This document shows positions 17,254 to 54,770 of a stretch of 64,000 nt of DNA, one piece after another. Position numbers and translations under genes: made by a program. Source of the DNA: Ignavibacteriota bacterium (GTDB lineage Bacteria; Bacteroidota; Ignavibacteria; Palsa-1295); contig CAVZOL010000001.1 of the NCBI GenBank assembly GCA_963776895.1, positions 25,321-89,320 on the forward strand. The letters are read 5' to 3'. The notes beneath the pieces are model-generated. The model saw only the letters and a list, made by a program, of their open reading frames with translations. It did no database searches and was not told the origin of the DNA. Within the stretch, counting starts at the first letter, position 1, and each line of letters starts with the position of its first letter.

Positions 17254-17991
17254 CTATGAGCGGCGACCCTCGATGATGACGACAAATTCGCCTTTGAATG
17301 GATTCGTTTGAAACAAATCACGTACTGCTAAGAGTGTCCCGCGGGCAACACGTTCCTTAGGCATTGAAATATCCATAGCCACGGCGGCGTGCCGGTCGGT
17401 GCCGAACCCGTGGACAAGATCGTCCAGCAATTGCGAGAGGCGGTATGGAGCTTCGAGCAAAACGATGGTTTCTTCACGCGCGGCAAGCTTTCGCGCTGCA
17501 TTTTTTCGCTCGGTTTTCTCACGCGGCAGCATTCCTGCGAAATAAAAACGATCGGACCGAAACCCGCTCACCACTAACGCCGCAAGTATGCTCGAAGCAC
17601 CAGGCACGGGCGATACTTCTATCCCCTCCTCGATGGCTTGCCGCACTAAGCGCTGGCCGGGATCGGCAATGAGCGGAGTTCCGGCATCCGAAATCAGTGC
17701 AAGATTTTTACCGGAACGCAGGAGGGTTATCGCTTCAGAGGTGACATCGGCTTCCGTGTGTTCATTAAGTGGTATTAAGGGCTTTTCTAACCACCCCCCA
17801 GCAGCATCGTCGGCGATGCTTCCCTCCTTGAAAAGGAGGGGGAGTTTATGCAAAAGGGCGCGCGCGGGTTTTAGATCTTCGCAAAGAATGGCATCGGCAT
17901 TTTTCAGCGCCTCAATGGCACGAAGGGTAATATCACCGCTATTCCCGATGGGAACGGAAACGATCTTGAGGCAGCCCGGCGAATGATCCAT
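17254..17991 (-). CDS. rsmI: 16S rRNA (cytidine1402-2'-O)-methyltransferase
   Basis: PIGNSGDITLRAIEAL, SDAGTPLIADPG and LLEAPYR motifs of the RsmI/tetrapyrrole-methylase fold. It contains the palindromic repeat insert at 17790..17847. Confidence 0.88.
   Translation of the reverse strand: MDHSPGCLKIVSVPIGNSGDITLRAIEALKNADAILCEDLKPARALLHKLPLLFKEGSIADDAAGGWLEKPLIPLNEHTEADVTSEAITLLRSGKNLALISDAGTPLIADPGQRLVRQAIEEGIEVSPVPGASSILAALVVSGFRSDRFYFAGMLPREKTERKNAARKLAAREETIVLLEAPYRLSQLLDDLVHGFGTDRHAAVAMDISMPKERVARGTLLAVRDLFQTNPFKGEFVVIIEGRRS
17790..17847. repeat. Palindromic repeat family copy 1 (inside rsmI, in-frame)
   Basis: ACCACCCCCCAGC-AGCATCGTCGGCGATGCT-TCCCTCCTT-GAAA-AAGGAGGGGGAGTTT. Translated on the minus strand as KLPLLFKEGSIADDAAGGW(L). 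Confidence 0.8.
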
Positions 17992-35417: not shown

Positions 35418-35972
35418 TTACCAGATAATAGCCATCGAAACGGAGAATCCAATAACAGCTTGCGCAATAAGCGCATTTTTTGCAATATAGCTCCCTTGTT
35501 GCCGAAGCAACCCGATGGGAGTCCATCCCGCGGAATTATATTCTGTAAATCGCAGGCCACTTTGCGCGCGGCTCTCCCATGGGAACCAGCTTAACAGATC
35601 GCCCCATCCATAATATGCAAAATCATCCCCACAGGTCCACCATATAAGATTGAACGAGATCGCAGAACTAAGTCCGCACATTTTATACAAAAAATAGGTG
35701 ATGGCTGCCTGCGTGATGCCGGCGCACAGCCTATAGGCAAAGGGAACTTGAAAGTCGCCGCCGCCGTAGGATTTCTTTACCAGATTGAATGCAGCATAAT
35801 CCGCAAGCGAAAAAGCCAGTGTCGCTCCGACAACGTATCCATAACGCTCGACCGGGGTGCTATCGGCCTGTGCTTTCGCAGAATCGTTAATGATCAGGAG
35901 AATCGCGCCGGCGAAAATTAGAAGGGTGTAGCGCCCAACTTTAGTTGGGCGAAATAATTTTTGCAGCATCAT
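35418..35972 (-). CDS. Membrane/secreted protein of unknown family (paralogue B)
   Basis: 184-aa tandem paralogue of 34896..35411. Its first ~15 codons (MMLQKLFRPTKVGRY) are encoded by the left REP hairpin and overlap the RayT 3' end. Confidence 0.6.
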   Translation of the reverse strand: MMLQKLFRPTKVGRYTLLIFAGAILLIINDSAKAQADSTPVERYGYVVGATLAFSLADYAAFNLVKKSYGGGDFQVPFAYRLCAGITQAAITYFLYKMCGLSSAISFNLIWWTCGDDFAYYGWGDLLSWFPWESRAQSGLRFTEYNSAGWTPIGLLRQQGSYIAKNALIAQAVIGFSVSMAIIW

Positions 35973-36588
35973 ATCGTGACGATAAATAAGTCCCCGGCCA
36001 ATCCTGCCACTGAGCCACCATCCCCGCTTTCACGGGATTCATAATAACATACCGAATAATTCGTTCCAGAGAACCGCGCCGCACGACATGGTCGTAGCTC
36101 TCATATTGCCAAAAATGTTGCCCAATGTGGCCGAGGAGTTTATTACAATTGCGGGCAGTTGCGCCCTTGAGCAGCCTCATGATTTCGAAGAGCTTGGCCT
36201 CACCCACGACATCTATGACAAGATGAATATGATTCGGCATGATACAAAAGGCATGAATGAATATAAGTCCTCGCGCTTCCAGCTCCATTAGTTTTTCGCG
36301 CACGATTCCGAGAATGGCGCGCCGCTGGAGATAATCGACCCCGCCATGAAGCATGTCAAGCGATTCATCGTAGGAATTAAAAAACTGACCCTCCCCTACA
36401 CTCCCACGAAGCGACTTCAACCTCGCGATCTCGATGGGAGAAAGTGAACCCGCAAGCCGCGTCGTCACAAAATATGGCGCGTCGTTCGGTAAATAATGCG
36501 GGAGCTTTCGACGGTAATCGTTGCTTCCGGGACGTTTTAACATTGTGCATAGAACAATTTCGACCAACTAAAGTTGGTCGCTACACCC
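35924..36588 (-). mobile_element. REPtron-like unit: RayT (REP-associated tyrosine transposase) gene flanked by inverted REP hairpins
   Basis: Left: GGGTGTAGCGCCCAACTTTAGTTGGGCGAAAT (35924-35955). Right, reverse complement: GGGTGTAGCGACCAACTTTAGTTGGTCGAAAT (36557-36588). Identity is 30/32, and each contains a 9-bp hairpin. Confidence 0.75.
35941..36567 (-). CDS. IS200/IS605-like Y1 transposase of the RayT (TnpA-REP) type
   Basis: 208 aa: KLPHYLPNDAPYFVTTRL, HAFCIMPNHIHLVIDV (HUH), WQYESYDHVV (catalytic Tyr region), IRYVIMNPVKAGMV. Confidence 0.8.
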   Translation of the reverse strand: MVEIVLCTMLKRPGSNDYRRKLPHYLPNDAPYFVTTRLAGSLSPIEIARLKSLRGSVGEGQFFNSYDESLDMLHGGVDYLQRRAILGIVREKLMELEARGLIFIHAFCIMPNHIHLVIDVVGEAKLFEIMRLLKGATARNCNKLLGHIGQHFWQYESYDHVVRRGSLERIIRYVIMNPVKAGMVAQWQDWPGTYLSSRYDAAKIISPN

Positions 36589-37753
36589 GCGCCGTTATCT
36601 CCAACATTCGCTCCAGCGCAACTCGCGCCCATTTTTTCTCAGAATCCGAAACGACGATCTGATTTTTCACCACGCAAATTTTCAAATTTTCTAAAATATC
36701 CAACAGCGATTCCGGTGAAATGCGGTACATCGTTGCGCACTCACAAGCATACGGCGCAAGCGTGGTAATAAACTGTTCTGGATGGTCTTTCTTCAGCCTA
36801 TTCACCAGATGATGCTCCGTTCCGATCGCCCATTTACTTCCCGGCGATGCTTCATCGACCGTCTTCATGATGTACGATGTGGAACCAACTTTATCTGCTT
36901 GCCGCACAACCTCGAAATTACACTCCGGATGCACCATTACTTGTATGCCGGGATACAGCGCGCGCATGATATTTGGATGCGATGGCTGAAAATGCTGATG
37001 CACGGAGCAATGTCCGCGCCACAGTAAAATTTTTGCACTCTTTAATTCATCCTCGGAAAGACCACCCCCCGGCCCCCTCCTATTCCGCTCCGCTGCATAG
37101 GAGGGGGAGTTCGTTTGGTCGTATAGTTTTATCTCTTCAAGGGGAATATTCATCTGATAGAACGCGGTATTGCGGCCAAGATGCTGATCGGGAAAGAAAA
37201 ATACTTTTTCAAATCCCTGATCGAACGCCCATTGAAAAATTGCGCGATTATTAGAGCTGGTAGATACTGCGCCGCCATGCTCACCGCAAAATGCTTTTAT
37301 TGCGGCACTTGAATTCATGTAGGTTATCGGGCACACTTTTTGGGTATCGATATACTCCCCTATTTCATCCCACGCATCTTGCACTTGCTCAAGACGTGCC
37401 ATATCGCTCATAGAACAGCCGGCTTTGAGATCGGGAAGGATTACTTTCTGGTGCGGCGCGCTCAACACATCGGCCGTTTCTGCCATGAAATGAACGCCGC
37501 AGAAAATGATAAATTCCCTATCGTGAAGTTCCGATGCAAAGCGTGAAAGTTCGAAGGAATCTCCCATCCGGTCGGCAAATTGGATAATATCGTCGCGCTG
37601 ATAGTGGTGGCCGAGGATGACGATCCGATCGCGCAGTTCTTCTTTCAGCGCGTGAATGCGGCGAACGACTTCTTCCGAAGTTGTTTCGGCCACGAGCGCA
37701 TCCTCGACCGTCCCGGTCTCAGAAATTACATCAAGTTCCAGAATATCAGACAT
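36581..37753 (-). CDS. nadA: Quinolinate synthase
   Basis: GHHYQRDDIIQFAD, FCGVHFMAETADVL, FFPDQHLGRNTA, WRGHCSVH, HPECNFEV. It carries the palindromic repeat insert at 37061..37111. Confidence 0.92.
   Translation of the reverse strand: MSDILELDVISETGTVEDALVAETTSEEVVRRIHALKEELRDRIVILGHHYQRDDIIQFADRMGDSFELSRFASELHDREFIIFCGVHFMAETADVLSAPHQKVILPDLKAGCSMSDMARLEQVQDAWDEIGEYIDTQKVCPITYMNSSAAIKAFCGEHGGAVSTSSNNRAIFQWAFDQGFEKVFFFPDQHLGRNTAFYQMNIPLEEIKLYDQTNSPSYAAERNRRGPGGGLSEDELKSAKILLWRGHCSVHQHFQPSHPNIMRALYPGIQVMVHPECNFEVVRQADKVGSTSYIMKTVDEASPGSKWAIGTEHHLVNRLKKDHPEQFITTLAPYACECATMYRISPESLLDILENLKICVVKNQIVVSDSEKKWARVALERMLEITARV
37061..37111. repeat. Palindromic repeat family copy 2 (inside nadA, in-frame, exactly 17 codons)
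   Basis: ACCACCCCCCGG-CCCCCTCCTAT-TCCGCTCCGCTGC-ATAGGAGGGGG-AGTT. Translated on the minus strand as NSPSYAAERNRRGPGGG. Confidence 0.85.
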
Positions 37754-40178: not shown

Positions 40179-41207
40179 ATGCTGAATTACATCTGGCTTG
40201 GCCTGATCGCCATCGCTATCGTCGTAGCCGTTGGGCGCGACGTGAGTGAAGAAACGAGCGACCGCTTCCGAAATAACGAGCCGATCGCGCTCCACGTTGC
40301 GCCCGGCGCGATGAAAATAGCGGGACCAAATCACTTTACCGGCACAGCTTTTCTCACCAAAGCAGAAATTGCGCGTTTCTACGGCGCGGATGAAGCGCAG
40401 CCGATCAAAGGCGATACGGTATTTTTTTCTGCCGATCTCGTCGAGTCACCAACGAATGCGAAATCAGGCGCGCTTACACTCACACTTCCAGCCAATGCGC
40501 CGCAAGTGATGGTCGATGCCGCTACTGCTGGCGGCGATGCATCAAAAATTATCGGGCAAACTACCATTTCTCTGAATCTTCAAAACACCACCGTCCAGCC
40601 CCCTGCTCTTATAGAGGAGGGGGAGTTAGACTTTACCCCACCATCCGTTCACTTTCGTATTCTCGCAAAAGTTGGGAACGATGGGATTTTGAAGATTGCA
40701 GATACCGCTGTTCAACTTGCCATCGGCCTCATCGGCATTATGGCGCTGTGGCTGGGAGTTATGAAGATCGCGGAGGCAGCGGGACTTGTGCTGCTACTGG
40801 CGAGAATTGTCAGACCGATCATGGTGCGCGTGTTTCCAGACGTCCCGCCCGACCACCCCGCTATGGGAGCGATGGTAATGAATATGGCGGCGAATTTCCT
40901 CGGCCTTTCTAACGCCGCCACGCCGCTTGGACTCAAAGCAATGGAGGAATTAAACAAGCTGAATCCTGTCGCGGGAACTGCTACGAACGCGATGTGCATG
41001 TTCCTCACGATCAATACGACGGCGCTTACGCTTGTGCCCGCGACCGTTATTGCGATTCGGCTTACGCTTGGCTCAACCAATCCAACGGATATTATCATGC
41101 CAACGTTTTTGGCAACGTTTGTGAGTCTTATTCTTGGCATTTTATTTACGCGATTCATTCAGAGATTTTTTCCTATTCAAAGGACAGAAGGGACGCAAGG
41201 GACTTAA
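40179..41207 (+). CDS. Nucleoside-recognition (Gate) domain membrane protein, SpmA-like
   Basis: 342 aa. The hydrophobic C-terminal half resembles the SpmA family, and it pairs with a downstream SpmB-like gene. It contains the palindromic repeat insert at 40587..40627. Confidence 0.6.
   Translation: MLNYIWLGLIAIAIVVAVGRDVSEETSDRFRNNEPIALHVAPGAMKIAGPNHFTGTAFLTKAEIARFYGADEAQPIKGDTVFFSADLVESPTNAKSGALTLTLPANAPQVMVDAATAGGDASKIIGQTTISLNLQNTTVQPPALIEEGELDFTPPSVHFRILAKVGNDGILKIADTAVQLAIGLIGIMALWLGVMKIAEAAGLVLLLARIVRPIMVRVFPDVPPDHPAMGAMVMNMAANFLGLSNAATPLGLKAMEELNKLNPVAGTATNAMCMFLTINTTALTLVPATVIAIRLTLGSTNPTDIIMPTFLATFVSLILGILFTRFIQRFFPIQRTEGTQGT
40587..40627. repeat. Palindromic repeat family copy 3 (inside SpmA-like gene, read on the + strand)
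   Basis: ACCACCGTCCAG-CCCCTGCTC-TTATA-GAGGAGGGG-GAGTT, translated as TTVQPPALIEEGEL. A shorter variant with one stem mismatch. Confidence 0.7.
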
Positions 41208-53570: not shown

Positions 53571-53618
53571 ACCATCCCCCAGCCCCCTCCTATTCGCAAG
53601 CTCATAGGAGGGGGAGTT
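53571..53618. repeat. Palindromic repeat family copy 4 (intergenic, abutting the prfB stop codon)
   Basis: ACCATCCCCCAG-CCCCCTCCTAT-TCGCAAGCTC-ATAGGAGGGGG-AGTT. The last T is the first base (plus-strand sense) of the prfB TAA complement. Confidence 0.85.
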
Positions 53619-54770
53619 TATAGTTCCTCTTCCGCTGCATCGCTGACTTTCAGCTTGCCGCCTTCGTATAGCAAATAGGCCTTCATGAAATCGGTGATGT
53701 CGCCATCCATGACGGCCTGCACATCGGTTTTTCCGACTTTGGTACGGTGATCTTTGACCATCGTGTAGGGCTGGAAAACATAGGAGCGAATCTGCGAACC
53801 CCATGTGATCTTTTTCTTCGAGCCTTCGATGGCCGTGAGGCGTGCTTCTTCGATTTCCCGATCGATGGCAACAATGCGGGATTTCAGCATTTTCATAGCC
53901 CGCTCGCCATTTTGGAATTGCGAGCGTTCTTCCTGACATGCAGCGATTACGGTGTGCTGTCCACCGATGGCATCGGTGTATTTATAGGTGAGGCGAACTG
54001 CCGTTTCTACTTTGTTGACGTTCTGCCCGCCTTTTCCGCCGGAACGATATGTATCGCGCTGCAACAGAGCGGGATTGAGAACAATATCGGCATTTTCCTC
54101 TTCGATCACGGGGTAGGCATAGACGCTTGCAAAGCTGGTATGCCGACGCGCATTGGCATCATACGGAGAAATACGTACAAGACGATGCACGCCGTTTTCG
54201 GTTTTCAGATAGCCGAAAGCGTTTTCGCCATTGAATTCGAGCGTTGCGGATTTTATTCCGGCACTTTCGCCGGCAAGCTCATCGAGCATCCGGACTTTGT
54301 AGCCATTGCGTTCGCCCCAGCGAGTGTACATGCGTTCGAGCATTTCGGCCCAGTCGCAGGCTTCGGTGCCACCCTGCCCGGCATTGATGGTCAGGATAGC
54401 ATCTTTATGATCGTCCGGCTTGCTTAGCATGACGGCCACTTCCTGCGCGGTTAGCTCATCCGTGAGGCGCGTGAATTCCTCCGCAACTTGCGCTGTAAGC
54501 GATTCATCCTCGCGGGCAATTTCGAAGAGTTCTTCGGCGTCGTCTAAACGAGAGCGGAGTTTTTGGAAGTCATCTCGCTCTTTTTTCAGGCGGGAAAGCT
54601 CCTGCATTCTCTGCTGAGCTTTTTTCGGGTCGTTCCAAAATTCGGGCTGACCGGATTCGTCTTCGAGGGTATTTATTCGGCGTTCTTTTAGAGCGAGGTC
54701 AAAGAGAGTCGCCAAGCTCTGCGAGGCGTGCCCGCAGATCGGCGATTTGGGTGGTGGTAATTTCGCTCAT
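53618..54770 (-). CDS. prfB: Peptide chain release factor 2 (requires programmed +1 frameshift)
   Basis: Frame 0 is MSEITTTQIADLRARLAELGDSL-TGA (54770..54699). The +1 frame continues DLALKERRINTLE... through SGGKGGQNVNKVETAVR (GGQ motif) to 53618. Confidence 0.93.
54698..54704 (-). promoter_or_regulatory. RF2 autoregulatory +1 frameshift site CTT TGA C
   Basis: The canonical heptamer is read directly on the minus strand. The in-frame TGA occupies 54701..54699. Confidence 0.9.

Follow-up and report, generated by a model that had tools for sequence, protein, structure and literature searches.

How a short palindromic repeat came to lie in frame within the quinolinate synthase gene (nadA) of an Ignavibacteriota bacterium, and what kind of element it represents, are the questions raised by a 64-kb stretch of DNA, referred to here as the window. 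The answer that we favor, with a probability of roughly 0.8, is that the nadA element is a copy of a non-autonomous, REP/RPE-like hairpin that is tolerated in frame, and that it belongs to a DUF559-linked superfamily of which solo hairpins of this type are the miniatures. The evidence comes from the comparison of filled and empty nadA alleles, from related copies in the window and in other genomes, from the genes that neighbor these copies, and from the junctions at which they were inserted.

A palindromic insert in the nadA gene

The host gene occupies positions 36581..37753 of the minus strand and is an intact ORF of 390 aa, which matches the Pfam family NadA (PF02445) over positions 2-295 of 295 (E = 1.2e-93) and retains every column that is invariant among 46 aligned NadA proteins. 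Within this gene, the full family-consensus element, which reads ACCACCCCCCGGCCCCCTCCTATTCCGCTCCGCTGCATAGGAGGGGGAGTT on its C-rich strand, covers 51 nt of the plus strand (37061..37111) and is recovered over its full length by a covariance model (56 bits, E = 2.6e-10). The first-pass annotation had described a palindromic repeat of 51 nt at this position, and both its sequence and its context are confirmed. The element opens with a 5' module, ACCACCCCCCGG (ACCACCCCCC followed by GG; 37061-37072), continues into a hairpin (37073..37107) composed of a first arm (CCCCCTCCTAT, 37073-37083), a loop (TCCGCTCCGCTGC, 37084-37096) and a second arm (ATAGGAGGGGG, 37097-37107), and closes with an AGTT tail (37108-37111). 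The loops of the element are variable, and for this reason its precise boundaries are ambiguous at each site. The arms are complementary at 11 of 11 positions, in agreement with the 11-bp stem noted previously, although the description of this stem as nearly pure G:C was slightly too strong, as three of the pairs are A:T and eight are G:C. The hairpin is predicted to fold with energies of -11.6/-13.5 kcal/mol as DNA and -24.5 kcal/mol as mRNA. On the minus strand, the element is translated as NSPSYAAERNRRGPGGG, between ...EEIKLYDQT and LSEDELKSAKILLWRGHCSVH.

Filled and empty alleles of nadA coexist among Kapabacteria NadA that are 84-93% identical, as seen at both the protein and the DNA level, and the insert is missing from all distant NadA and, among those that are 80-92% identical, from the majority. 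The reading found in most close and all distant NadA is DQTQ-PL-GGL. The segment is therefore polymorphic between relatives and is not conserved across NadA orthologues, which upholds its earlier description as an insert. Empty-site DNA is available from L001, L002, L005, L006, L009, L010, and L014, and the alignment of the window with the L001 gene (81% nucleotide identity) contains a single clean 36-nt gap that places the net insertion at 37074..37109 of the plus strand, a position that is alignment-dependent by a few bases. The insert had been counted as 17 codons, which holds for the 51 nt of family-consensus sequence but not for the net gain relative to empty alleles, which amounts to only 12 codons (36 nt) because the last five codons (P-G-G-G and part of the flank) overlie a native P-x-G-G. 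Both glycines of this native P-L-G-G are invariant in the alignment of 46 NadA, or nearly so (at least 90%). In a second clade of filled alleles, the net gain is 13 codons.

These alleles bear on the proposal that the segment is a native, lineage-specific part of NadA or an artefact of assembly, which would be compatible with its in-frame position and the intact ORF. The proposal is refuted by the empty alleles described above and by the presence of the insert in several independent assemblies (JGI, ENA, NCBI), which shows that it is not an artefact of one assembly. An intein is excluded, as twelve added residues are too few. An intron or translational bypass was likewise discarded, since no Rfam family reached its gathering threshold anywhere in the window and, with the insert in frame and stop-free, no bypass is needed; a tRNA scan of the window found none.

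The filled alleles fall into two clades in a neighbor-joining tree that carries no support values. Between these clades, the element is identical at 48 of 51 positions (94%), compared with 75-78% in the flanks and 53% at third codon positions, and the contrast between element and flank has a binomial P of 0.002-0.005. The filled alleles may alternatively trace back to a single gain that was followed by several precise losses, or to a recombinational exchange of alleles. The site itself is variable in other respects. The nadA gene of L008 holds a decayed copy of the element, L003 and L004 carry a different, GTAG-tagged palindrome at the same position, and a second NadA site with family copies in other lineages is found near the N-terminus.

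The possibility that the insert occupies a surface loop, raised in the first-pass annotation, was examined with an AF2 model of NadA (pLDDT 86, pTM 0.84) that resembles the solved NadA structures 4zk6 and 4p3x in Foldseek comparisons (TM 0.87-0.90, normalised to the target). In this otherwise confident model, the insert is predicted to form a low-confidence coil (pLDDT 56-71) in the connector between two domains, as the surface-loop idea would have it. The solved structures align to the window's NadA by HMMER only over residues 28-194 and 245-387 and thus lack this inter-domain connector, so the insert cannot be placed on them; the length of the inter-domain loop differs between phyla. Because the insert keeps the frame, contains no stops and lengthens a coil that is already flexible and variable, it is most likely translated, as judged from the frame, the intact ORF and the conserved residues, and the enzyme most likely remains functional with the insert as a harmless addition. 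We conclude that the insert is tolerated in a permissive loop of NadA, where it would add a Pro/Gly/Arg-rich peptide to the variable coil between the two domains, and where a copy that is in frame and stop-free would be expected to persist.

A dispersed family of hairpin elements

The covariance model of the family identifies four copies in the window and no further matches. The two-arm pattern is found twice (0.00 expected) and the 3' 12-mer GGAGGGGGAGTT has four exact occurrences (0.14 expected), and these copies are thus not a product of chance. The second copy (17790..17846, plus strand) lies in frame in the rsmI ORF (17254..17991, minus strand), where it is read as KLPLLFKEGSIADDAAGGW, in a different frame from the nadA copy as had been pointed out earlier. 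It contains a nested 18-nt hairpin, AGCATCGTCGGCGATGCT (17803-17820), is also polymorphic between relatives, and has a counterpart of the same two-hairpin composite form in L160, another MAG, within the Lnt gene. The third copy (40587..40627, plus strand; 48.3 bits) is slightly decayed and lies in frame, read as NTTVQPPALIEEGEL, in a Gate-domain membrane gene (40179..41207, plus strand), whose orthologue in L139 carries the element intact at this position and whose orthologues in L002 and L001 have none. The fourth copy (53571..53618, plus strand; 55.1 bits) is intergenic and abuts the stop codon of prfB, the TAA of which (53618-53620) overlaps the terminal base of the element.

Beyond the window, the family follows the consensus ACCACCCCCCAGCCCCCTCCT...AGGAGGGGGAGTT, with copies of 39-57 nt built as ACC(A/T)CCCCCC, two variable nucleotides, a hairpin with arms CCCCCTCC and GGAGGGGG around a loop, and AGTT. 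A genome scan with a pattern in which the hairpin and the AGTT tail alone were fixed returned at least 115 matches, the distribution of which represents a sample. The 5' module ACC[AT]CCCC, which was left unconstrained, is present in 60 of the 115 matches listed, for a chance expectation of ~0.0006 per site. The matches listed include Desulfuromonadales, Sphingomonadales, Cytophagia, Kapabacteria/Ignavibacteria, Armatimonadota, Patescibacteria, and Zixibacteria, and the architecture of the element is present in at least five phyla. A search of all loci for the 12-mer with two mismatches allowed was too noisy for use.

Many of these copies lie within genes. In-frame copies were found in hosts verified with Pfam, namely Lnt (twice), UbiE, a Xer-type recombinase, TsaD, a radical-SAM protein, and an SBP, and also in LeuRS, MnmG, GlnE, DnaE, and a type IIG RM enzyme. 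In the Kapabacteria/Ignavibacteria lineage, three of the four window copies are intragenic, as are 11 of 17 copies sampled in related MAGs, the latter figure comprising ten Pfam-checked genes and the L139 Gate orthologue. In unrelated genes, copies are seen in both orientations and in several reading frames. The conserved modules are free of stops in all six frames, and their translations are 42% Pro and Gly. Whole copies have 4-5 open frames and are only slightly more stop-free than random segments of 40-50 nt, which makes a special stop-free design of the element less likely.

The dispersal of the family bears directly on the suggestion that the palindrome was born within nadA, at a G-rich run of glycine codons subject to slippage or local template switching, and resembles the other copies through convergence. 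The native site does contain GGTGG/GGAGGG, a sequence similar to a portion of the element. However, near-identical copies with the same long loop, TTCCGCTYCRCTSC, are found in unrelated genes of other MAGs (UbiE in L094, as well as L099 and L170), the 5' module recurs in the scan without having been constrained, and the rsmI composite reappears in L160 Lnt. A convergent local origin is effectively refuted by these dispersed, near-identical copies.

The same copies must be considered in asking whether the hairpin is kept for a benefit to the host as DNA or RNA, through the slowing of ribosomes between domains, mRNA stability or protein binding. The perfect stem, the strength of the predicted mRNA hairpin and the excess of element over flank identity between the nadA clades fit such a role, as do the placement of the nadA copy between two domains and of the prfB copy exactly at a stop codon, and the high nucleotide conservation could reflect a selected role of the hairpin. 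Recent or repeated copying explains this identity equally well, however, and most close relatives have no insert in nadA, while some copies are decaying (L008, P0125), unrelated palindromes are found at the same sites, and the host genes are unrelated and hold the element in both orientations and in several frames. A host function is accordingly considered unlikely, and the reading of the element as a tolerated mobile hairpin is preferred.

Association with DUF559 and the insertion junctions

When the neighbors of 110 hairpin loci were clustered, DUF559 was the sole neighbor recurring across taxa, and its domain was counted 14 times in 822 kb of loci with a hairpin hit and not once in 828 kb of control loci of different taxonomic make-up. 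The DUF559 genes carry hairpins on both flanks, as inverted copies. The exact family, a C-run/G-run hairpin with the ACCNCCCC module and AGTT tail, flanks DUF559 genes at eight loci (L125, L165, L105, L122, L136, L151, L174, and L129). Close variants flank DUF559 in three further loci that were chosen without a hairpin criterion and examined at the DNA level, where L190 has inverted copies at both sides, L196 has the same pair of variant hairpins at each side, and L192 has a copy downstream only. An extension-peptide test, which used 120 DUF559 homologues taken by protein similarity alone, is consistent with this arrangement: the long N-terminal extensions of these proteins read like translated hairpins in 43 of 72 cases (9/240 in controls), and the C-terminal extensions in 18 of 42 by a strict regular expression, with most of the others recognised by eye (0/240 in controls). 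No DUF559 gene is present in the 64-kb window, and a tblastn search for DUF559 in the window and the NadA loci returned only the element itself, which matched the hairpin-encoded N-terminus of the seed.

The first-pass annotation had anticipated neither the spread over several phyla nor the link to DUF559. Another multicopy candidate, a 330-aa 'ORF' at 13 loci of the Kapabacteria chromosome OY762428, proved to be a satellite made of tandem repeats, has no genuine Pfam match and is not a transposase.

A different candidate partner for the element is encoded directly downstream of nadA. RAYT proteins are Y1/HUH enzymes that excise and insert single-stranded hairpins, and a Y1_Tnp/RAYT-like gene at 35941..36567 abuts nadA (Pfam 2.5e-10; NCBIfam REP_Tyr_transpos 1.6e-21), raising the possibility that the element is simply an ordinary REP that owes its mobility to this enzyme. 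All four window copies share one orientation, as single-strand transposition might yield, and REPs that are intragenic and, for some copies, translated are on record (PMC3733652). Nevertheless, four of four copies in the same orientation is not significant (p = 0.125), and GC skew gave no usable replication-strand signal for it. The window's RAYT gene is bracketed by inverted, GTAG-tagged REPs of its own, GTGTAGCGCCCAACTTTAGTTGGGCG and CGACCAACTAAAGTTGGTCGCTACAC, which are unrelated in sequence to the element; the element itself carries neither a GTAG nor a CGTC tag, and the clustering of hairpin-locus neighbors yielded DUF559 and no Y1 transposases. Mobilisation by RAYT is for these reasons considered quite improbable, and a DUF559-linked element is favored.

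The insertion junctions, analyzed from alleles at ~80% nucleotide identity, provide some indication of how the hairpins may be copied. No target-site duplication was found at the nadA, rsmI or Gate junctions. One end of the element overlaps 5-9 nt of similar native sequence: native GAACTC underlies the AACTC end in rsmI (a gain of 30 nt), native GGAGAGTTG underlies GGGGGAGTTG in the Gate gene, native CCG-CTC-GGT-GG underlies CCGGGGGGTGG in nadA, and the TAA stop supplies the AA of the element at prfB. Across the four sites, native AACTC or GGTGG lies under one element end, and the end concerned differs between sites. The lack of duplication, the terminal microhomology and the movement of the flank toward the consensus point to a mode of copying unlike classical transposition.

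A survey of PD-(D/E)xK enzymes groups DUF559 with the fold of Vsr and I-Bth0305I (PDB 1cw0, 3hrl, 3r3p) (PMC3424549), and on these grounds the partner gene could plausibly encode an enzyme with nicking or homing-type activity. In the explanation that we propose, the gene-carrying form of the element would be a Vsr-like DUF559 endonuclease gene bracketed by inverted hairpin copies, and solo hairpins such as the nadA copy would be its miniature derivatives. Copying would begin at a nick or break, would be guided by 5-9 nt of microhomology (AACTC or GGTGG) at an element end, and would be accompanied by a short co-conversion of the flank; in nadA, it would have pasted a very small non-autonomous hairpin into the coding sequence with a net addition of 36 nt. 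That DUF559 itself supplies the nuclease for hairpin copying is a tentative suggestion, to which we give somewhat less than even odds, and DUF559 cassettes and hairpins could merely share a target or accumulate together. The broader proposal, that DUF559 proteins are the dedicated nucleases of an unrecognised cross-phylum class of miniature elements whose hairpins are copied by nick or break and microhomology with no duplication of the target, is put forward as possible rather than probable.

Relation to known repeats and significance

In-frame palindromic inserts are of a known kind, found in Rickettsia and among some REPs. RPE-1, of ~100-150 bp, is known only from Rickettsia. The element resembles the RPEs, which are palindromic repeats in frame inside protein-coding genes (PMC3733652), in being dispersed, in entering genes that include essential ones whose products are thought to be functional, and in being polymorphic between relatives. 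It differs from them in being 39-57 nt long, G/C-rich and DUF559-linked and in occurring in free-living bacteria of several phyla, so that membership is excluded on size and lineage alone. With REPs and REPINs, the element shares the form of dispersed, G/C-rich imperfect palindromes of 20-40 nt that are often paired and inverted, and with REPtrons the arrangement of a single-copy enzyme gene bracketed by inverted repeats. It nonetheless lacks the GTAG/CGTC tag, which is present in the REPs flanking the window's RAYT gene and in the L003/L004 insert, and the bracketed gene is a DUF559 nuclease rather than an HUH/Y1 transposase. Furthermore, the window's RAYT has its own distinct REP, and a large share of the sampled Kapabacteria/Ignavibacteria copies of the element is intragenic.

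MITEs are also small, non-autonomous and dispersed, and insert in frame on occasion. They typically measure 70-300 bp and have terminal inverted repeats and target-site duplications (PMC3733652), whereas the present element is shorter than 60 nt, has ends (AACTCCCCC and ACCACCCCCC) that are inverted only loosely, and displays no duplication at four junctions. Palindromic elements derived from IS200/IS605 have a Y1 TnpA partner, and none was found here among the neighbors of hairpin loci. Such elements insert 3' of a fixed tetra- or pentanucleotide. Vsr works in mismatch repair and I-Bth0305I is located in phage introns or inteins; DUF559, known here from sequence, shares their fold grouping, and I-Bth0305I does not lie between hairpin repeats. 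The cyanobacterial small dispersed repeats reportedly described by Elhai in 2008 are likewise very short mobile palindromes that occur in genes and in other repeats and lack target duplications. They differ from the element in sequence and lineage, and they are not known to have a nuclease partner.

The hairpin family and its link to DUF559 appear to be undescribed in the literature searched. Its recognition extends the phenomenon of in-frame palindromic inserts to free-living Kapabacteria and to core genes of unrelated phyla, and identifies hairpin inserts as a recurring source of variation in protein length, and also as a cause of artefacts in annotation and alignment, among them spurious extensions at the N- and C-termini and fragmented assemblies. 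Under the broader proposal, hairpins would regularly come to rest within essential genes and form additional surface loops, because the sequence that they encode is rich in Pro and Gly and contains no stops. The link to DUF559 also offers this domain, which is very widespread and of unknown function, a concrete and testable role as the possible partner nuclease of a hairpin repeat. If this role is correct, DUF559 and its hairpins would parallel RAYT and its REPs, forming a functional counterpart of the RAYT/REPIN system on a different, Vsr-like PD-(D/E)xK fold.

Palindromic insertions in nadA and rsmI

The nadA gene of the window (36581–37753, minus strand) encodes a full-length quinolinate synthase of 390 residues (Pfam NadA, E = 1.2e-93) and contains at 37061–37111 the segment ACCACCCCCCGGCCCCCTCCTATTCCGCTCCGCTGCATAGGAGGGGGAGTT (plus strand), which is read on the minus strand as NSPSYAAERNRRGPGGG between ...EEIKLYDQT and LSEDELKSAKILLWRGHCSVH, as the first-pass annotation had translated it. 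The arms of its hairpin, CCCCCTCCTAT and ATAGGAGGGGG, are complementary at 11 of 11 positions (8 G:C and 3 A:T pairs), with folding energies of -11.6/-13.5 kcal/mol as DNA and -24.5 kcal/mol as mRNA. The palindrome is not a product of chance: the two-arm pattern is observed twice in the window versus 0.00 expected, and the 12-mer GGAGGGGGAGTT occurs exactly four times versus 0.14 expected.

Four copies of the element are written in the same orientation on the plus strand of the window, namely in an RsmI-type methyltransferase gene (17790–17846, read as KLPLLFKEGSIADDAAGGW, in the different frame claimed for it earlier), in nadA, in a Gate-domain membrane gene on the opposite strand to nadA (40587–40627, read as NTTVQPPALIEEGEL), and in an intergenic position that touches the prfB stop codon (53571–53618). 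With a covariance model of 33 family members, no window matches were found beyond these four. In the family architecture, a 5' ACC(A/T)CCCCCC module is followed, after two variable bases, by a hairpin CCCCCTCC...GGAGGGGG whose loop varies, and then by an AGTT tail; in the rsmI copy, an additional nested hairpin of 18 nt, AGCATCGTCGGCGATGCT, separates the module from the main hairpin. A second, smaller palindrome type (GCATCG-TCGG-CGATGC or GCATGA-GCG-ATCATGC), present at window 17803–17820 and in loci L007 (a NadA N-terminal copy), L082 and L160 of other genomes, is nested in some main-element copies, where it invariably has the hairpin on one side and the ACCACC/GGTGGT module on the other, and may be a separate tiny mobile unit. 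The prfB ORF is listed as 53618–54715 with a TTG start codon; just within it is CTTTGAC (54698–54704, minus strand), the canonical motif for RF2 +1 frameshifting, and the real start is probably upstream in a different frame.

The nearest NadA proteins are from Candidatus Kapabacteria. In an alignment of 46 NadA sequences, all distant homologues and most relatives at 80–92% identity read DQTQ-PL-GGL and lack the segment; the window protein and homologues P0001 and P0002 read DQTN-SPSYAAERNRRG-PG-GGL, and homologues P0004, P0007, P0009 and P0011 read DQSA-NSPSYEAERNRRG-LG-GGL. Direct reading of the DNA covered seven empty alleles and three filled ones; among the latter is L008, whose broken stem indicates a decaying copy. 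With both allele types found among relatives in protein and DNA, the nadA segment is a polymorphic insertion. Because a single clean 36-nt gap separates the window gene from the syntenic empty allele L001 (81% nucleotide identity), and because the final five codons of the 51 nt sit over native P-L-G-G, in which both glycines are invariant or almost so (at least 90%) across the 46 aligned sequences, the net gain is 12 codons (13 in the second filled group). The in-frame palindromic insert proposed by the first-pass annotation is thus real and its interpretation right in substance, with the length of 17 codons corrected to a net 12. The rsmI insert is polymorphic too: most relatives read HELQI-EKPLL, without an insert, while homologue P0121 carries a single hairpin, the window gene the same hairpin plus the nested one, and P0125 a decayed form. 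In three related Kapabacteria contigs (L199, L200 and L201), rsmI is directly preceded by a gene for a YoeB-type toxin.

Solved NadA structures align by HMMER only to residues 28–194 and 245–387, which places the insert in an inter-domain connector without a counterpart in those structures. An AlphaFold2 model made from the 46-sequence alignment (overall pLDDT 86.2, pTM 0.84; TM 0.87–0.90 against solved NadA, normalised to the target) predicts residues 211–230 at pLDDT 56–71, with 223–225 below 50, as a coil between strand 208–211 and helix 234–239; the insert lies in this low-confidence stretch of the connector. Every invariant alignment column is kept in the window protein, and the length of the loop is variable in other phyla too. 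The same loop is a landing site hit repeatedly by unrelated palindromes. In other Kapabacteria (L003:5683-6900, L004:4552-5769 and protein P0014) it holds an unlike, GTAG-tagged palindrome of ~81 nt, SASVVAGSPSLPREGAGTAPLQLVS, which resembles a GTAG-type REP in its ends, GTAGTGGC...GCCACTAC, and in the small hairpins inside, and P0037 has a short variant at this position. Copies of the present family occupy a second NadA site, near the N-terminus (ENPLLFKEG...), in nine other sequences.

Nucleotide conservation and junctions

Between the window and L007, one from each filled group, the element is identical at 48 of 51 positions, versus 75–78% for the flanking 150-nt blocks, 79.8% for the whole gene and 52.6% at third codon positions (binomial P, 0.002–0.005). 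In a neighbour-joining NadA tree, computed with the insert columns removed and carrying no support values, the two filled groups fall in separate clades amid empty alleles. A passively drifting loop would not account for this combination of element identity and clade pattern, and the comparison argues that the element is kept up or renewed at the nucleotide level, and any one of repeated insertion, allele exchange, selection on the hairpin or gene conversion between copies could be the cause.

No target-site duplication was seen at the rsmI, Gate gene, nadA or prfB sites; at each of the four, one element end overlies similar native sequence. The empty rsmI allele reads CAT GAA CTC CAA ATC GAA and the filled one CAT GAA CTT CCC CTC CTT ... 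GGG TGG TCA GAT (+30 nt), with the AACTC end of the element coinciding with native GAACTC. The Gate gene reads ...TTT GAA GGA GAG TTG CGA when empty and ...GAG GAG GGG GAG TTG AGG when filled, native CCG CTC GGT GGA in nadA becomes CCG GGG GGT GGT, the flank having moved toward the family consensus, and at prfB the first A's of the element come from the TAA stop. From these four sites, with flanks of ~80% identity, we infer that copying may be steered by 5–9 nt of microhomology at the element end and accompanied by short co-conversion of the flank.

Spread of the hairpin family

The family is wider than this lineage. A scan of species-representative genomes, using the fixed hairpin and AGTT tail only, found at least 110 loci, and the unconstrained ACC[AT]CCCC module lies just upstream in 60 of the 115 matches listed (chance, ~0.0006 per site). 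Among these matches, full-architecture copies occur in Geobacter, Desulfuromonadales, Novosphingobium, Sphingomonadales, Pontibacter, Lunatimonas, Cyclobacterium, Kapabacteria, Ignavibacteria, Armatimonadota, Patescibacteria and Zixibacteria. The hairpin loop is specific to the lineage. Other MAGs (L094, L099 and L170) have the long loop of the nadA copy in genes unrelated to nadA, and L160 has the two-hairpin rsmI form, which together exclude a local origin of the nadA palindrome.

In Kapabacteria/Ignavibacteria-type MAGs, 11 of the 17 copies among the matches listed lie deep within long ORFs. Pfam checks on ten of these hosts upheld every one as a genuine gene (Lnt twice, UbiE, a Xer-type recombinase, a CCG-domain protein, an SBP, TsaD, a radical-SAM protein and two Por-tail proteins); the remaining host, L139, is orthologous to the window Gate gene and holds an intact copy at the corresponding position. 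The copies in Lnt (apolipoprotein N-acyltransferase) of two MAGs share one protein position in opposite orientation (L082:3643-5370 versus L160:5509-7206) and differ in variant (IDHASPPPLSEEGEF versus QTPPPFQGGEASPTM), which suggests independent hits or an inversion. Hosts in other phyla include LeuRS, MnmG, GlnE, DnaE, a DUF1501 protein and a type IIG restriction-modification enzyme. Intragenic copies run in either orientation and are read in several frames. None of the six frames of the conserved modules contains a stop codon, and the translations are 42% Pro+Gly, but whole elements are open only a little more often than random segments of equal length. On the Kapabacteria chromosome OY762428.1, a hairpin ends a ~1-kb multicopy block built from tandem repeats of 21 nt and 60 nt (L179:3930-4900 and 12 other loci), and some loci have hairpins at 168-nt tandem spacing (L134, L159 and L186); a 330-aa ORF of the block is false, being a tandem-repeat translation without a real Pfam match.

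The proposed DUF559 partner gene and known repeat systems

When all ORFs of the hairpin loci were clustered, the only neighbour recurring across taxa among the matches listed was DUF559 (PF04480), a Vsr-like PD-(D/E)xK endonuclease domain, which a survey groups with Vsr and the fold of the homing endonuclease I-Bth0305I (PMC3424549). DUF559 genes lie 0–300 nt from hairpins, which flank them on both sides, in Sphingomonadales, Desulfuromonadaceae, Cytophagia, Armatimonadota and Kapabacteria loci. An HMM search found 14 domains in 822 kb of hairpin loci versus none in 828 kb of control (NadA-centred loci and the window). Because the two sets differ taxonomically, a second, independent test used 120 homologues of the Kapabacteria DUF559 chosen by protein similarity alone. 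Among N-terminal extensions long enough to judge, 43 of 72 read NSPPxKGGVxxGRGG or similar, which is the translated hairpin AACTCCCCCC...GGGGGGAGTT followed by the GGGGTGG tail, and 18 of 42 C-terminal extensions resembled TTPSLRATPPLEGGEL and NHPAPSGHPSLERRG by strict regular expression (most did by eye); 240 control proteins gave nine N-terminal matches, all NadA N-terminal inserts, and no C-terminal ones. The DNA of three such homologue loci bears this out: inverted copies (L190) or paired variant hairpins (L196) stand on both sides of the gene, and in L192 a hairpin lies downstream only. No DUF559 gene was found within the 64-kb window. The association suggests that the element may be mobilised by DUF559, a mechanism that is the weakest link of the account.

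Gene callers often run the DUF559 ORF through the hairpins, creating false extensions at both termini, and many homologues are known solely from contigs of ~0.5–3 kb, as expected if flanking repeats break metagenome assemblies. Chromosome OY762428.1 carries three identical DUF559 genes in tandem, ~840 nt apart, with hairpins near each (L129:2485-4569). Four Sphingomonadales genomes (L105, L122, L136 and L165) have a hairpin-flanked DUF559 gene just upstream of a putative NAD-dependent DNA ligase gene, identified by its N-terminal sequence; the shared position indicates vertical inheritance of this cassette rather than recent mobility. In the MAG palsa_1295 (L107:5168-5752), the gene is flanked by several forward and reverse copies of another hairpin family of the same architecture (ACCTCTCCCC-TAA-CCCCTCTCC-TTGGTAA-GGAGAGGGG-AAC); the pairing of gene and repeat seems to have branched into several such families.

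A hairpin-bracketed DUF559 gene has the layout of a REPtron, although the enzyme differs. The window itself holds a classical REPtron at 35926–36586, directly downstream of nadA, in which a RAYT-like gene (35941–36567, minus strand; NCBIfam REP_Tyr_transpos 1.6e-21, just under cut-off) is bracketed by an inverted pair of GTAG-tagged palindromes, GTGTAGCGCCCAACTTTAGTTGGGCG (35926–35951) and CGACCAACTAAAGTTGGTCGCTACAC (36561–36586, overlapping the nadA stop). These REPs are unrelated in sequence to the nadA element, and the window has no further copies of them. Rickettsia RPEs and some GTAG/CGTC-tagged REPs are established cases of palindromic repeats lying in frame within ORFs (PMC3733652), so this kind of event is already known. 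The nadA element has neither tag. Titles and abstracts of papers naming DUF559 yielded no link to repeats, and further searches found neither such a description nor repeats in Kapabacteria; coverage of the literature was incomplete, and novelty is unproven by this absence. The RPE/REP-like nature of the phenomenon is thus known; what is new, as far as checked, is the hairpin family, its cross-phylum spread, its partnership with DUF559 and its junctions free of duplication. What nadA carries is one copy of a small, selfish hairpin repeat that a flexible loop between domains tolerates, and it is one of many in-frame inserts of this kind in the lineage.
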